From: Planctomycetota bacterium
GTDB lineage: Bacteria > Planctomycetota > UBA1135
Direction: 5' to 3'
Assembly: GCA_045047305.1 (NCBI GenBank)
Contig: JASFYO010000037.1
Coordinates: forward strand, 1 to 39,884
Length of the DNA stretch: 39,884 nt
Part shown: piece after piece, positions 18,908-32,574 of the stretch
How positions within the stretch are numbered: the stretch's first letter is position 1
How the letters are laid out: the number at the start of each line of letters is the position of its first letter
Notes under the pieces: generated by a model
Databases searched by the model: none
What the model saw: the letters and a program-made list of their open reading frames with translations, nothing else
What the model was told of the DNA's origin: nothing
Position numbers and translations under genes: made by a program

Positions 18908-20134
18908 TTACTGTGGGACGTCAGCGCTGACGAACAACAAAGACGAGCCAGCACCTGGCTTGAACAGGATCACACCTAGGTGGGCGGCAACAGGTGCCGT
19001 ATCCGAGTGGATGTGGAAGCTGTACGAGGTACCCCAGCGCAAAGCATTGGCATTCTCGTTAGCACTGCATGCGCCACCAACCCATGCTTGTACACGTTGG
19101 GTGGTGCCTGGATAAAGGCCATCGTAGGAAAACCAGTCGGTGTTATCGTAAACTTCACCACTATGGTACTCAGGGTCCACAAAGGATCCATTGCTCAAGA
19201 CGGTGCTGCTACTGACAGGAATCGCGATGGCGCGAGCACTGCGGTCGGAGTCACGGTTGTAAAGGGTGTAGTCGTAATCCCAACCACCACCGGCTGCAGC
19301 AGTTGCCTTGTATGCAAGGTACATGCTGCCATCATTTGGCACTGGAATCTCAACAATCGTCACCGAAGGATCCGCGACTTGCCACGCCACGATGGCTGAA
19401 TCTTCGCGCATCGTCGAACCAACAAAGTTCATGTTGTAAGGAGGGTTCGCACCACTGATGCTGACCTCGCGGTAGCTCACGTTGTTGAAACCATGGCCAA
19501 GTAATGCGCTGTCATCGTTAGTGACATACTGCGACTCGGCGAAATAACGAGCACCAGCATTCAGGGCTGGGTCCACATCTACATTGTCTACTACAACCCG
19601 ACGGGCGAGTGGGCCACTCGTCGATCCACCGAGGACTGGTGGATAAGGGAAGAAGCCAGTGTAGGCATTCACTTCTGAGCGAGCGGCCAAGTCACTTTGG
19701 AATCCGTTGAGCCACGCGCTATACGGATCCGAACAACCTGGGCTGAGGTGGTTGCCGCCAGAGCCAGTACAGGTGTTACATACGGAACCCGTAAGAGCAG
19801 TGAAACCGTGTTTCAGCCAGCTCATGCCAAGCATTTCAAAACGGCCGTCCTTTAAACGATAAAGGTTGCTGCCAATAACCGGATGGTCAGGGGTAGATGC
19901 AACCCAACTTAGGTTGGCATTGCCAATATTGCAGGATGTGGTGCCAAAACTGTAGGCGCTTTGACCATTCTGGGTTCCGTTCTCAGCGAGATCATGGATA
20001 TCACCGACGATGACATCTGGGAAGCCAGCGACAAGTGAAGACGGGCCTGGAGAGGCCTGAAGGTTATGGCCAAAAATGGCGAGACAGGTGCCGCCAATTA
20101 GGGCAACGGGGAGAAGGAATCGAGTCTGCAACAT
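18908..20134 (-). CDS. Secreted Cys-containing hypothetical protein
   Basis: Signal peptide, 408-aa ORF with its own terminator. Motifs include PDVIVGD, GTTSCNIG, HPVI, SWLKHGF and GCSDPY. Confidence 0.8.
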   Translation of the reverse strand: MLQTRFLLPVALIGGTCLAIFGHNLQASPGPSSLVAGFPDVIVGDIHDLAENGTQNGQSAYSFGTTSCNIGNANLSWVASTPDHPVIGSNLYRLKDGRFEMLGMSWLKHGFTALTGSVCNTCTGSGGNHLSPGCSDPYSAWLNGFQSDLAARSEVNAYTGFFPYPPVLGGSTSGPLARRVVVDNVDVDPALNAGARYFAESQYVTNDDSALLGHGFNNVSYREVSISGANPPYNMNFVGSTMREDSAIVAWQVADPSVTIVEIPVPNDGSMYLAYKATAAAGGGWDYDYTLYNRDSDRSARAIAIPVSSSTVLSNGSFVDPEYHSGEVYDNTDWFSYDGLYPGTTQRVQAWVGGACSANENANALRWGTSYSFHIHSDTAPVAAHLGVILFKPGAGSSLLFVSADVPQ

Positions 20135-27116: not shown

Positions 27117-28064
27117 TTATTGCACCACTGCAGAGACAGGGTCTGTAATTCGCGCAGTCAACCCATCAATCTCAATACCTTGAGCAAAAATGGTGCGGCC
27201 AAGACTAGCCGGTGGCAGGGTAATCGTTAGAGAGACAAGCCCACCGGGATCCGCAACCAACGGCAAAGGCGGAATAATAAAAACCGGACTCGCCAAGCCT
27301 AAATCACCAAAAACAGAAGGAGTCGTGCCAAGCCCCGCAATCGATAGAGCGAAATGAGCAAGAGTGCCAACGGTAACGTTAGTCATTTCGAATGTTCCGT
27401 ATTGCCCCGCCTGAAGGCTTACAATATTGGCCGACGGCGCTGCGGGAGTGTAATACAAAGTTCCATTCCACTCACGAAAGTAAAAGGTACTAGCCCATGT
27501 GGATTTCCCAAAGTAGGTTTCCAAGCTGAGGTCTGCATTGGAAAAAATAGTCGGGCCACCATTGGTATAAGAAACTGAGTTGGTCGGTACGTCGACAAAA
27601 ATTCCATAGACCACACCAGCTTCAAAAACCACGCCATTGCCGGCAAAGCTCACATTGGTTGGAAAGCCGAGACCAGCCCCCACACCGCTCGCAACACCAA
27701 GCAAAGTCCAGGCAGTAGAGTCCGATTCAAATCCATCACATGTGCCAACCTTGTACCACAGGTTCACGTCGACAGGAAAGCCCGTGGTCGAAATGTGAAT
27801 ATCAAGGCATTCAATAAACATATTGATGTTGGGCGTGATGTTGAACATATTACCACCAGAACCATTACCAGCAAGGTAGTGGGTGGTCAGGAATGTATTG
27901 GTGCATCCCGTTCCAAGACTAAGCGTGTTTCCGCTTGCAAGCATGGGAGAGGAAAGCTGACCATCGTCTTGGCGCTTAACGGTTTGCGCCGTAAGGCTTG
28001 ACAAACCAATAAGGAATGCGAGACAAAGGGCTGGGGCGTATATCAGTGTTGGGGGGAGCTTCAT
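27117..28064 (-). CDS. Secreted beta-rich protein with conserved C-terminal domain
   Basis: Signal peptide (LTA|Q), passenger domain GNGSGGNMF...YTNG...REWNGTLYY, and a C-terminal domain homologous to that of 31711..32574. Confidence 0.8.
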   Translation of the reverse strand: MKLPPTLIYAPALCLAFLIGLSSLTAQTVKRQDDGQLSSPMLASGNTLSLGTGCTNTFLTTHYLAGNGSGGNMFNITPNINMFIECLDIHISTTGFPVDVNLWYKVGTCDGFESDSTAWTLLGVASGVGAGLGFPTNVSFAGNGVVFEAGVVYGIFVDVPTNSVSYTNGGPTIFSNADLSLETYFGKSTWASTFYFREWNGTLYYTPAAPSANIVSLQAGQYGTFEMTNVTVGTLAHFALSIAGLGTTPSVFGDLGLASPVFIIPPLPLVADPGGLVSLTITLPPASLGRTIFAQGIEIDGLTARITDPVSAVVQ

Positions 28065-28131
28065 GACGCTTAGAACGGTTTATCAACCATACGCGACAAA
28101 GCCCCCTCATTTTCAGCAAAAACCAAAAAAA

Positions 28132-29532
28132 TCACTTATCCCAGCCGTAATCAGAGCTGAGCAGAAACTCAGCGAGATCGCGATAAAGAACATGGTCCAA
28201 GGCATAATCCTTGGGCAAGCCTTCCAGGCCTGGATAGGAGGTGGAAAGGCTAACACGGTTTTTCGCGGCAAGAGAATTACCGACTAAGACGTAGGCTGTC
28301 CATCTCGCCCCTTCAGCATCCAAGTATCCTCTCCAGCCTCCTCCGAGATCACGCACCCAAATTTTGAGCCAGTGCTGTCGCAGCCCGGGAGATTCAAGTC
28401 CATGGTTTGCAAATTTCCAGATTGGCACCAACCGATGCCGTTCCACGGCTGAAGCATTTTCAAAGGATTTTTTAATCAAATTCCGATCAGCTTCCATTCC
28501 CCCTAGAGCAAGAACTGTGGCCGCGGCCCAACGATCTTGAAAGGAAACTGCGGTTTGAAAAGTACTTCGAGCAGCCATGAGATAGTTTTGCGCGGCCGTT
28601 TTGGCTTGCTTCCAATCTCGATTTGCAAGACTCAGAATGCCACAAACCTGGTAAGTGGCTAACTTCGCTGAATTGGGTGGCGGAAGTTCCAGACCTAGAT
28701 CACCGGCAGCCCCCCATAACCATTTTCGTTCCAAAGCGCCCACCGCCCGAGTTTGGAAATGAAAAAACAAACCTTGACGTTGATTTGCCGGAACTTCATA
28801 CAAGGAAAGAACCATGCCAATCTGTTCACCGACCAAAGCCATGCTTTGAATCGCCTTTCGCGGCCGGGGTGGTGCACGCCTTGCTGTCATAAACCACATT
28901 GCTGGAAAATCAAAATTGGTTTGATTCATGACCAAATCAGTGGGCACTGATGCTTTGCTCGGGTCAGCGGCAATGAGGAATCGTAAGCCAGCTGAAATTT
29001 GCGAAGATCCAACCATCGGATTCCCAGTCAGGGCTAGGGCAGCATCCAAAAAAGAAGTCAAAGACGATTCCTTGTCCGCCACCAAGAGAGATGGCCACGG
29101 AGCCACGGTCAGGCGCTCTGGTCGAGTTAATAATCCAGCAAGAAGACATCCCTTTTCAAAGGGTGTGGAGCCACGCGACCAATCCTTATCAGCATCTACC
29201 CCAGCAGTAGGATGAAAGGAACCATAAAGCAAAAGTGCGAAAGCGCGTTGAGGATCTGCTTTGCGGCCCTTGCGCGCTGCTTTCTCAAGAACAGCATAAG
29301 TTTGAGGAGTCCCCATAAGGCCAGCCGCCAATAGAATGGCACGTTGCCGTTGCGCAGTCCCTTTCCCTGCCTTGGCTAACAACCAAGCCTCGGCGCGTTC
29401 ATCGCCGTTAGCAACTTCATGCGCTGCGGCAAAACGCGTAAGCACATCATCGGAGTCCAATGCTCGCTGCAATGCTTGCGTCGGTTCCTGCAGACAAGTA
29501 AGCAGGAGAAGGGAGAAGGTGGAAAGAAACAT
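28132..29532 (-). CDS. Exported alpha-helical (HEAT-like) hypothetical protein
   Basis: GGAG RBS before ATG 29532, short hydrophobic N-terminus, and a HEAT-like segment ALDSDDVLTRFAAA. Confidence 0.7.
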   Translation of the reverse strand: MFLSTFSLLLLTCLQEPTQALQRALDSDDVLTRFAAAHEVANGDERAEAWLLAKAGKGTAQRQRAILLAAGLMGTPQTYAVLEKAARKGRKADPQRAFALLLYGSFHPTAGVDADKDWSRGSTPFEKGCLLAGLLTRPERLTVAPWPSLLVADKESSLTSFLDAALALTGNPMVGSSQISAGLRFLIAADPSKASVPTDLVMNQTNFDFPAMWFMTARRAPPRPRKAIQSMALVGEQIGMVLSLYEVPANQRQGLFFHFQTRAVGALERKWLWGAAGDLGLELPPPNSAKLATYQVCGILSLANRDWKQAKTAAQNYLMAARSTFQTAVSFQDRWAAATVLALGGMEADRNLIKKSFENASAVERHRLVPIWKFANHGLESPGLRQHWLKIWVRDLGGGWRGYLDAEGARWTAYVLVGNSLAAKNRVSLSTSYPGLEGLPKDYALDHVLYRDLAEFLLSSDYGWDK

Positions 29533-29581
29533 GGTGTTCTCTCCACCTAGCATAACGGACGGACTTTGAGTTTCCTTACTA

Positions 29582-30769
29582 TTACTCCACTCGAATAGCG
29601 ACTGGAGAACTCCAACCCATGCCATGCGCAAAAACTTGATACCAAAGCATGACAGAAGTCATGCCTGCAGGCAGGCTAGGAGTCCGTGCCATATAGGATG
29701 CCCCACCATTGCTATCAGCAAACAGAGGACTTGCACTAGGGGCCGGCCAACGGTGAATCGGTGGCACCCCTAAATCTAGAACTGCATAGCCCACTCCCCC
29801 CCTTGTACTCGTCACGACTTGGTACTGAGGTCCAGCCATACCACTAAGTCGAGTGCCCGCCGCAGCATGACGCACGCGTAGTTGAAAGGATTCACCCGGA
29901 TGCAGGTAGTTTACGTCGGTGGACAGAATGACGGGTTGTTCCAATTCTGCAGGAATAAAACTTAGGGCATCAATCTCTGTAGAAATCTGGAAACCCCAAT
30001 CATCTTCTTCCCAGCCAACAAGGATAGTTCCGTTTTGATCCGCTGCGAAAACGGTGGCGTCAATGGAACTTGGTGATTGAACGGTGAATAACATCTCACC
30101 AGTCACAGGGTGAAATGAAAGCGCCTTCACATCGCCGATTGCTGAAGCGGAACCAGTAGCGTTAGTTACCCATGCCTGCACTTCCGCTTCGGTGGCAATG
30201 AGACTTATGCTTCCTGCAGAAATATCCCACTCCAGGACATCTCCGTCCGACAAGTCCCCCAATACCGTGCCCACGAGGCCATCTTTCAATGAAAAACGGT
30301 AAACCGAAGCAGACACAAAGGCCAGTGCGTCGATATCAAGGCTACCACTACTAGGAAGCAAAACCGCCTCCAGCTCCGTTTCGCTGTGCAAGACTTGCAT
30401 CCCACCGTTTCGTGAGAGATGCAAAATATCGCCATCTTGAAAGCCAAGAAAATCCCGGTCGGAGGAAAAGGCGAGGTCAAAAATGCTTGGAGTTTGAGTC
30501 CCGACGCTTGGGAGATAGGTCACGGCATCAATCCCATCCGGCAAGTCAAAGACGCCATCGGCATTGCTGTCGCCCATGTGACTCATCCAGGTCTGTTGCG
30601 GTGCAAACACCCTGGCCCAAAGGTCTGTATCAGAGCGACGGAGAATGGCTTCATCGCGACATATATTGTCTTGAGGTAGCCGAGAATCAGCGCTGGTCGA
30701 CGCCAAGGCTTGCAAAGAGGGAGCTTGGCCCTGACTTGCAAAAAGAAGTACGAGTGTTGTGACAATCAT
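29582..30769 (-). CDS. Secreted protein with internal IDAL/DGD repeats and C-terminal domain
   Basis: Hydrophobic N-terminus MIVTTLVLLFASQ, repeats IDAVTY/IDALAF/VKALSF/IDALSF, and a DSNADG motif. Start moved to 30769 to avoid overlap with the divergent gene. Confidence 0.75.
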   Translation of the reverse strand: MIVTTLVLLFASQGQAPSLQALASTSADSRLPQDNICRDEAILRRSDTDLWARVFAPQQTWMSHMGDSNADGVFDLPDGIDAVTYLPSVGTQTPSIFDLAFSSDRDFLGFQDGDILHLSRNGGMQVLHSETELEAVLLPSSGSLDIDALAFVSASVYRFSLKDGLVGTVLGDLSDGDVLEWDISAGSISLIATEAEVQAWVTNATGSASAIGDVKALSFHPVTGEMLFTVQSPSSIDATVFAADQNGTILVGWEEDDWGFQISTEIDALSFIPAELEQPVILSTDVNYLHPGESFQLRVRHAAAGTRLSGMAGPQYQVVTSTRGGVGYAVLDLGVPPIHRWPAPSASPLFADSNGGASYMARTPSLPAGMTSVMLWYQVFAHGMGWSSPVAIRVE

Positions 30770-30822
30770 GACACGCTGAAGACGGCGTCGCCATCCCGGA
30801 GGCACACTGATATCCTGCCAAT

Positions 30823-31620
30823 ATGTTGTTGTCGCTTCTCCTGCAGATTGCCACCTTGCTGCCGCCCAGCCCGACTTGGAACACAGAGGCAAAGGTTGAT
30901 TATCTTCAAGCGGTGCAGCAGTTGGCACGCATGGAATTGTGGAAGGAAGAAGCCACCGACTCCCTTCATGCAATGACTTTGGACCAACAAGCCGGATTAA
31001 GATGGTTGCTGCAATCAGGGACCGATGCCGAAGTTCGACTCAGCACTATTTTGGCCGCAGGATGTAGCGGTGATTCCACTCTTGGTTACAGTTTATGGCG
31101 TCGCGCTGGCATGGAGCAGAATGAAACGAGAACCATTGCATGCCTACTTGCCCCCAAGACCGTCCCACCAGATGTCCTACCCATGCTTGCGTGGATAGCT
31201 GCCGACCCCCAACGTAGTCTTCCTCAACGCGCCACAGCTCTCGCACGTTTACTCGATGCAGATCAATTCGCAACCTGGCCCATGGTGCGCTCCATTCTGC
31301 GCACCGGCACTGCTGCAGACGTAATGGCGCCAGGCGCCGATTGGAAACGTGATGGTCGCTATGAACTACCCAAACGTATATTGCTGCTTTCGATCCAACA
31401 CCTACTACAACGTCATGGGTTTGATGAAACAAGTTTTGAACCCAATTCAGCATGGCCTAAACAATTGTCCCAGCTAGCCGACTTAGAGAATTCCATGCAG
31501 TCCATGGCGTCAACCAAAAGGTCGGTAGCCAGCAACTCCGCTGCCACATGGCAAAGGTTGCAAGACTTACATGCGGACGGTAACAAACTTGCCACGATTG
31601 CCATGAGTCTCTTAGATTAG
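30823..31620 (+). CDS. Exported helical hypothetical protein
   Basis: 265-aa ORF with a short hydrophobic N-terminus and HEAT-like segments. TATCCT lies 6 nt upstream of the ATG. Confidence 0.65.
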   Translation: MLLSLLLQIATLLPPSPTWNTEAKVDYLQAVQQLARMELWKEEATDSLHAMTLDQQAGLRWLLQSGTDAEVRLSTILAAGCSGDSTLGYSLWRRAGMEQNETRTIACLLAPKTVPPDVLPMLAWIAADPQRSLPQRATALARLLDADQFATWPMVRSILRTGTAADVMAPGADWKRDGRYELPKRILLLSIQHLLQRHGFDETSFEPNSAWPKQLSQLADLENSMQSMASTKRSVASNSAATWQRLQDLHADGNKLATIAMSLLD

Positions 31621-31657
31621 GTCGCTCACGTCAGGCGAGGCGGGCCAGTGCAGTACG

Positions 31658-31690
31658 AAAAAGGCGGCCTCCCCTTTCGGAGAAGCCGCC
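31658..31690 (-). terminator. Rho-independent terminator
   Basis: The minus strand reads GGCGGCTTCTCC-GAAA-GGGGAGGCCGCC-TTTTT, 20 nt after the stop at 31711. Confidence 0.9.
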
Positions 31691-31710
31691 AAGTTGAGAA
31701 CTATCTTCTC

Positions 31711-32574
31711 TTACAGAACCAACTCAGCCAAGGAGTTGCTCAAACCTCCGGATGCAAGGTCCAAGCACTGGGTGTAAAGGGTCAAACCAGCTGCCGAACC
31801 AGGTACGGTTGGGGAGAAGCTTGCATCGCCTGCACCGCTTGCAGTGATGGTTGCCAGAGTGTTGATTGGAGCACTCATGTCTACCATGCCGTAAACCGTG
31901 CTAGTTGGGCCAGCACCGGTGAGCGAGTAACCAATAATGACACTGCCGCCAGCAGAAGCTCCAGTTACGGAGAATACAGCTACTTGGCCTGCAACAAGGT
32001 TGGTGATTGCGTAGGTAAGTCCACCACCGCCACCGCCACCTGGCTGATCATCAACCACGATGTTATCTACGAGCCAATCCTGATCGTAGGTCCCGTAAAG
32101 GTGCGCACCAAGTTGCACGTTGGCCATGCCAGCCCATGCGGAGAGGTCCACATCGACGGAAATGAGAACATCATCCACCGTTGCCACATCAATCCAAACT
32201 TGAGTCCAGGTGAGGCCTCCATCGGTGGTGATTTCCATAGTGGAAATGCCATCGCCAATGCTGTTGGGGTGATTCGCCATCCACATGGTGTAGTGAGTTT
32301 GGCTGTTAAAGTGCAAGTAGGCATTGGTGAGTCCGCTAAGGTCCATGACTGGAGTCATGAGGGTGTTATCGGAATCGGCAATGAATTCATCATCGTGCCA
32401 AGCGTTACCCAAGCCGTCTGCTTGCCAACCAATGGTTGGAAGGCCATTGTTATTTACATTGGCCCATCCGGCTGGAGGAACAATACCAGCGTTGAAGTCC
32501 TCAGAGAGGATCGTGGTTTGGGCAGAAAGGCTGCCTGCGAATGCCAAAATGGCAAGGGATGTTAAAATTTTCAT
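31711..32574 (-). CDS. Secreted cleaved-adhesin/choice-of-anchor-J-like protein with Gly7 linker and C-terminal domain
   Basis: AGGAGA RBS and signal peptide (LSA|Q). The pattern SEDF..GI.P.GW, LMTPVMDLSG, TDGG.TWT, VDLSAWAG and WLVDNI is typical of cleaved-adhesin/MAM-like domains. Confidence 0.8.
   Translation of the reverse strand: MKILTSLAILAFAGSLSAQTTILSEDFNAGIVPPAGWANVNNNGLPTIGWQADGLGNAWHDDEFIADSDNTLMTPVMDLSGLTNAYLHFNSQTHYTMWMANHPNSIGDGISTMEITTDGGLTWTQVWIDVATVDDVLISVDVDLSAWAGMANVQLGAHLYGTYDQDWLVDNIVVDDQPGGGGGGGLTYAITNLVAGQVAVFSVTGASAGGSVIIGYSLTGAGPTSTVYGMVDMSAPINTLATITASGAGDASFSPTVPGSAAGLTLYTQCLDLASGGLSNSLAELVL

Follow-up and report, generated by a model that had tools for sequence, protein, structure and literature searches.

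An uncatalogued terminal domain family on exported proteins of Planctomycetota and its putative role as a surface anchor

A large, uncatalogued family of terminal domains is carried by exported proteins of Planctomycetota. We trace it from three proteins, P0001, P0002 and P0003, encoded in the 39,884-nucleotide stretch of DNA analysed here (the window), which is contig C37 of a 2.83-Mb Planctomycetota genome, G000, that is 88% complete. The family itself is real, and our tentative reading of its role, held with slightly less than even confidence, is that of a putative uncleaved, non-covalent surface anchor that would work like CBM37 or dockerin. Of the two options that the original prediction had offered for the three tails from the letters of the window alone, surface attachment fits the data better than a secretion signal with its own machinery.

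All three open reading frames, their signal-peptide-like N-termini, a Gly7 linker and the three tails translate as first described (Table 1). The tails of P0001 and P0002, which had been said to align along their length, are homologous, with 27% identity over 86 aa and a pairwise E of 5e-12. The P0003 tail, proposed as a more distant fit, scores weakly by itself (E 0.19 with a hidden Markov model (HMM) of the genome's copies, 0.0033 with the expanded HMM). It is a true but divergent family member, because 14 of the 38 P0003 homologues (mostly 392-422 aa) reach E<=1e-3 against models built without the P0003 tail type, and a profile of the homologues' tails aligns with the family at a probability of 97.2% (E 3.7e-11), against 0.2% for a passenger control. 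The passengers are unrelated, as had been stated (best pairwise E 0.27); residues 23-174 of P0001 match NF038128 with E 1.2e-5, under the family cut-off. Full-length homologues of P0001 were found, and the named relatives are Planctomycetota. Two finer features describe the three proteins without extending to the family: the penultimate valine is present in all three tails but is no family rule (V 25, I 14 and L 8 of 62 tails), and the Gly7 linker belongs to P0001, whereas in 48 proteins compared the domain mostly abuts its passenger.

Eight rounds of HMM search over the 21,537 six-frame open reading frames of G000, at a threshold of E<=1e-3, returned 68 matches, a count still growing by one per round; reversed reading frames gave a best E of 0.14. 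Sixty-one copies are C-terminal, all finishing within 7 residues of the stop codon, 2 lie near the N-terminus, 3 are cut at contig ends and 2 are fragments, so that the 63 complete proteins divide into 61 C-terminal and 2 N-terminal. Several further remote members can be recognized by eye. Signal peptides and lipoboxes were called throughout with an in-house heuristic in place of a dedicated predictor; it finds a signal peptide in 60 of 67 called carrier genes versus 921 of 2,313 other G000 genes, an inflated background. The genome thus holds tens of matches, nearly all terminal and on proteins with predicted signal peptides, as the original prediction anticipated. Only 1 of the 60 carriers has a lipobox by the heuristic, compared with 94 of 663 other signal-peptide proteins (p 0.002), and 1 of 67 has a membrane helix; these low rates suggest that the domain fills the anchor slot. 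The predicted mature N-terminus is Gln in 51 of 60 carriers versus 213 of 569 other signal-peptide proteins by the same heuristic, and such N-termini resemble the pyroglutamate rule of Bacteroidetes.

Table 1 Features of the window (plain coordinates) and N-terminal copies elsewhere in G000
Feature	Position	Strand	Basis
P0001, 287 aa: signal peptide, choice-of-anchor-J-like passenger, Gly7 linker, terminal domain	31711..32574	-	translation
P0001 predicted Sec signal peptide; predicted mature chain begins with Gln	32521..32574	-	sequence and in-house heuristic
Gly7 linker of P0001	32020..32040	-	sequence
P0001 terminal domain, copy 1, 102 aa, predicted seven-stranded FnIII/Ig-like sandwich with inserted beta-hairpin	31714..32019	-	HMM E 9e-21; AlphaFold2 pLDDT 97.7
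P0002, 315 aa: signal peptide, passenger without Pfam or NCBIfam match, terminal domain	27117..28064	-	translation, library scans
P0002 predicted Sec signal peptide; predicted mature chain begins with Gln	27987..28064	-	sequence and heuristic
P0002 terminal domain, copy 2, 106 aa	27120..27437	-	HMM E 2.6e-16
P0003, 395 aa: signal peptide, repeat passenger without assigned family, divergent terminal domain	29582..30769	-	translation
P0003 terminal domain, copy 3, 117 aa, divergent	29585..29935	-	hhalign probability 97.2%, E 3.7e-11
N-terminal copy before Kelch propeller, convergent with FadL-like barrel gene (L051)	G000:C2:62355-64082		sequence
Second N-terminal copy (L052)	G000:C87:13429-13947		sequence

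The 61 passengers of G000 group into 28 unrelated clusters, the largest with 21 members. The Pfam names assigned to 48 of the scanned carriers include FG-GAP propellers, S8, M10, M14 and M28 peptidases, glucose/sorbosone dehydrogenase, di-haem cytochrome c peroxidase, plastocyanin, lectins and ASPIC/UnbV, and the set also holds 'choice-of-anchor' domains. In a quick tree of the tails, in which some labels were assigned by eye, well-supported groups mix different passengers, which indicates that the tail has been shuffled among them. The tails are slightly acidic (means of 2.9 K/R and 5.2 D/E per 100 aa) and lack conserved aromatic residues, and no shared cleavage motif was found upstream of the domain in 48 proteins compared. 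Proteins bearing the domain account for 35,939 of 884,947 residues, about 4% of the coding capacity of G000.

Beyond G000, matches to the profile occur in 57 of the phylum's 301 genomes, and in the 30 families itemised the pattern is all-or-none. In the single-contig carrier G157, 150 candidates were scored and at least 76 of them are copies, and G034, G024, G025 and G040, non-carriers that are close by secretin similarity, have none; gain or loss therefore looks sharp. In the distant carrier G177 (2.4 Mb, of which 2.0 Mb were examined), 28 of 29 matches are C-terminal; 8 of 27 of its carriers have a G000 homologue, and the best match of all 8 also bears the domain. Of 1.84 billion cluster representatives searched, 8,581 matched at E<=1e-3. 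The best 150 of these comprise 118 proteins with a single C-terminal copy, 15 with several copies of which one is C-terminal, 2 that are N-terminal only, 14 short fragments and one Ig-repeat adhesin (P0013) that is unrelated. P0005 consists of a signal peptide and three domain copies with no passenger, and the domain directly follows the signal peptide at 3 of 19 foreign loci. Two- and three-copy forms also exist outside the phylum, as in the multi-copy P0009, named Thermodesulfobacteriota. The ESM Atlas returned 30 unnamed clusters, with Planctomycetota the commonest taxon where one is known; plasmid and phage collections held no match to the domain, and 64 outside carriers scanned had no other named sorting signal. 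The lineage-specific C-terminal signal first proposed thus survives as a lineage-restricted terminal module, shorn of strict C-terminality by the N-terminal and tandem copies, and of the machinery of its own discussed below.

AlphaFold2 predicts a seven-stranded fibronectin type III (Fn3)/immunoglobulin (Ig) sandwich with an inserted hairpin (pLDDT 97.7). Compared with known folds, the domain has a generic Ig/Fn3 likeness: the 50 best structural matches are generic Fn3 and Ig domains with many ties (best Z 9.3-9.5), and Foldseek gave no match at E<=0.001. Library scans of 57 tails confirm that the domain has no Pfam or NCBIfam family, with a best single E of 0.002 and no family common to more than two members. 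The profile also matches P0013 and, weakly, enediyne apoproteins and antibody chains; sequence matches in the PDB to C-1027 apoprotein (E 8e-4) and antibody light chains were rejected as generic Ig matches. No paper describing the domain was found in a literature search that was thin on subscription journals and left supplements outside, and in the main text of the Saltatorellota preprint (10.1101/817700) both 'secret' and 'signal peptide' are absent. Terminal targeting modules are a known kind, and by sequence the present domain falls outside each named family that could be tested.

In the mechanism that we propose, cargo would be exported by Sec, with removal of the signal peptide, and would fold in the periplasm, because the passengers include haem, copper and PQQ-type proteins. 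The folded cargo would then leave through a secretin, probably of type II, this being the sole folded-protein exit found common to G000 and the distant carrier. The terminal domain would finally bind one common surface partner and hold the cargo there. Since the tails lack conserved aromatic residues, a sugar is a less likely partner than a lineage-specific scaffold protein or lipid, and the large Ig-repeat lipoproteins encoded near gspC are candidates. An anchor is favoured over a cleaved signal because the domain appears to work at either end, its copies repeat, already-anchored proteins lack it and a cleavage motif is missing. Repetition is typical of binding modules, and the tandem copies (15 of the best 150 cluster matches, and P0005) suit one; the multi-copy forms outside the phylum likewise suit a module independent of a lineage-specific machine. 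By eye, large lipoproteins and proteins with membrane-anchored tails in G000 are without the domain.

We regard CBM37 of Ruminococcus albus as the closest working analogue. The accessible part of PMC4081043 describes 51-102 copies per genome in one lineage, with tandem repeats, C-terminal on unrelated secreted proteins, where the module replaces dockerin, binds the cell wall and keeps enzymes on the cell surface. Many copies in one lineage, a terminal and sometimes tandem position and unrelated secreted passengers are shared with the present domain; CBM37, however, serves a monoderm and has a cell-wall carbohydrate ligand, whereas our domain occurs in diderms. Scans with Pfam and NCBIfam found no sequence link between the two, a result obtained without a direct CBM37 profile comparison. 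Dockerin tails (PF00404) of other Planctomycetota offer a second likeness, a terminal docking module expanded on many proteins. They differ in fold and motif, their duplicated calcium-binding motif being absent from our tails, have no HMM match in the tails and no match in G000, and their expansions (12-66 matches) sit in 4 of 40 non-carrier genomes and 0 of 40 carriers, in which the maximum is 5. Membrane-anchored C-terminal signals combine a short motif, a transmembrane helix and a basic tail, unlike the present domain, which is predicted to be all-beta; none of the carriers fits the motif patterns of PEP-CTERM, GlyGly-CTERM, MYXO-CTERM or LPXTG.

Several points weigh against the anchor reading. 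No binding partner of the domain was identified; the Ig-repeat lipoprotein family, sought with a single-sequence query, is present in 14 of 36 carriers and 0 of 25 non-carriers; and the strong C-terminal bias is equally expected from a secretion signal. The dockerin contrast rests on four related genomes, and at G018:C85:4500-6250 (L087) a 580-aa frame has a dockerin followed directly by the terminal domain, so the two are not always alternatives. To these are added the inflated signal-peptide background noted above and the incompleteness of G000, which means that a missing machine gene is possible.

Candidate machinery genes were compared in two panels, one of 63 genomes (37 carriers, including G187 with 1-2 copies, and 26 others, including G116 with one match) and one of 80 (40 and 40, with both G187 and G116 as carriers). 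Because the queries came from carriers, every contrast is biased towards them; related genomes, besides, do not count as independent. G000 encodes six secretins, and each of the five carrier genomes scanned has five to eight. A gspD-E-F-G-H-I-J cluster is syntenic in G000 and G177 (gspD named by Pfam, the others by eye), and a gspK was also read by eye. A GspC-like PDZ protein of G000, under the TIGR01713 cut-off, is encoded near a prepilin peptidase and large Ig-repeat lipoproteins. Its gene is found in 36 of 37 carriers and 12 of 26 non-carriers, a short secretin in 37 of 37 and 13 of 26, and a small Skp-like protein in 33 of 37 and 7 of 26. Type II secretion is thus available as an exit in essentially every carrier, with no specific tie to the domain.

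A broader role, possible if on balance unlikely, would make the domain an all-purpose folded export signal, for type II secretion or for a route not yet described, that any periplasmic protein could bear at either end in order to leave the cell; a deep clade of Planctomycetota would then use it on tens to hundreds of proteins in each genome. Rather unlikely, too, though the chief rival of the anchor reading, is the more specific form in which GspC or the secretin recognises the domain as a portable folded tag that exports any attached passenger, a role that a folded tag could perform at either end and that would be compatible with anchoring. Its precedent is an Fn3 domain found in PelI and Pel3, two type II substrates, which carries secretion-signal loops according to the accessible text of PMC7949064 and, like our domain in its predicted fold, is a seven-stranded Fn3 sandwich that stands at one end of its protein in a bacterium possessing type II secretion. 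The two Fn3 domains (PDB 3B4N and 4U49) rank among the best structural matches, at Z 8.9 (root-mean-square deviation 2.5, 82 residues aligned) and Z 8.3, with 11-12% identity; the PelI match is, however, tied with unrelated Ig and Fn3 domains. PelI itself, in the same portion of that source, requires signals in both of its domains, so that its Fn3 domain is part of a composite signal confined to one enzyme family, not one portable tag. Conservation points both ways, since the tail of P0001 homologues is better conserved than the passenger (69-78% versus 53-64%) and that of P0003 homologues is not. The near-universal GspC-like gene and short secretin of carriers accord with a tag, but both genes also occur in about half of the non-carriers counted above; the domain is missing from large Ig-repeat lipoproteins that seem to be exposed at the surface, and a three-copy protein without a passenger, such as P0005, makes little sense as tagged cargo.

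It is improbable that the domain is a generic Ig-like accessory without a sorting role, binding food polymers or particles, or spacing or stabilising its passenger. The generic fold matches and the profile hits to P0013, enediyne apoproteins and antibody chains would be expected of such a module. Against it, the domain is almost never internal, and passengers such as plastocyanin, cytochrome c peroxidase, peptidases and propellers have no common substrate; the all-or-none presence across families and the eight G177 carriers whose best G000 matches all bear the domain also count against it.

Still more doubtful is a signal for a system of its own, undescribed so far, that would carry out outer-membrane export or act like a sortase. 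Architecture and cargo are closely similar to those of the system for type IX secretion (T9SS), Gln is enriched at the predicted mature N-termini, and four close non-carriers have no matches at all. The N-terminal and tandem copies argue the other way. By eye, no large beta-barrel candidate stands among the 22 longest G000 proteins, and one of about 15 barrel-like G000 proteins was matched in the 2.0 Mb of G177, a comparison that is incomplete because BamA was missed there too. The FadL-like barrel beside an N-terminal copy was dropped, with no match in the examined part of G177. Of six candidate genes profiled, none is both confined to and universal in carriers, and no dedicated machinery was found in the genomes profiled, where the candidate translocons, shuttles and peptidases all failed to follow the distribution of the domain.

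A highly diverged T9SS signal with diverged T9SS genes is largely refuted and very improbable. Type A C-terminal domains of T9SS are, in the accessible part of PMC11285876, seven-stranded Ig-like sandwiches at the C-terminus of Sec cargo, and they share with our domain the Sec signal peptide, variable passengers of similar kinds and, as predicted here, the fold. The present domain differs in spanning some 100-125 aa, an inserted hairpin or helix included, and in its N-terminal and tandem copies, among them the passenger-free P0005. As the original prediction held, it is no T9SS tail, since 0 of 57 tails match TIGR04183 or the Pfam T9SS models at E<=0.1; TIGR04183 and PF18962 score over cut-off in none of five genomes. 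The 50 best structural matches, all generic Ig or Fn3, include no T9SS tail structure. PorV (PF19572) was not found in any of the five carrier genomes (88-94% complete), in a search whose control rang; SprA and PorP/SprF gave 0 of 5 each, with no control ringing. A C25 peptidase match, a candidate PorU-type sortase, occurs in 3 of 5 carriers and in neither G105 nor G157, the latter despite its many copies of the domain.

Some neighbouring observations concern secretion loci. At G000:C2:81601-85003 (L068), and in G177 at L161:11354-14390, a cassette encodes a small Skp/OmpH-like exported protein, a short secretin in which no N-domains were detected and a GspK-like gene. The small Skp/OmpH-like protein occurs in 40 of 63 genomes, usually beside a secretin, and the cassette may represent a so far undescribed accessory to the type II system of Planctomycetota. 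At G000:C5:7942-21048 (L065, L066), two lipoprotein secretins of about 900 aa flank a TPR protein, an exported protein, ExbB/MotA and two ExbD. Paired TPR-secretins around ExbB/ExbD are present in 40 of 40 carriers and 32 of 40 non-carriers; they are phylum-wide and do not track the domain, and the accessible part of PMC12204202 describes a comparable TPR-tolQ-tolR-tolR arrangement for the PVC group. Their 949-aa TPR neighbour is found in 17 of 40 carriers versus 0 of 40 non-carriers with a single, distance-limited query. At G000:C5:42560-67087 (L067, L229) lie several Ig-repeat (Big_5) proteins of 1,050-1,200 aa, most with a lipobox, together with prepilin-peptidase-like and GspC-like genes. 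A GspC-like gene is close to such lipoproteins in G138, G174, G004, G053 and G105 as well, and the Big_5 lipoproteins are candidate surface scaffolds.

Domain-free exported proteins were also seen. One of three, at G000:C88:13754-16117, C49:23013-25082 and C4:74507-76633, has a glycine-rich tail with a cysteine, a hydrophobic stretch and basic residues; by eye, we take this tail to be like MYXO-CTERM and the other two to be like CFI-box-CTERM. In the window, two signal-peptide proteins lie among the domain-bearing genes, at 28132-29532 (minus strand, 466 aa) and 30823-31620 (plus strand, 265 aa), both with no Pfam family and no convincing NCBIfam match. A 408-aa exported protein at 18908-20134 (minus strand) is without the terminal domain and a Pfam family, and is 43% identical to a G177 protein.

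Although it marks some 4% of the coding capacity of G000 and metagenomic protein clusters by the thousand, the domain still lacks a family name, and it is found, as judged from genome sequences, in diderms without a detectable T9SS. With a profile of it, the probable surface proteome of a large clade of Planctomycetota, most of it uncultured, could be picked out. As a general secretion signal, it would provide the common type II signal that model bacteria have not yielded; as a type II tag, it would make the long-open question of how folded cargo is selected testable with one small domain. If the anchor reading is true, the domain would be the equivalent in diderms of CBM37 and dockerin and would have a new receptor.

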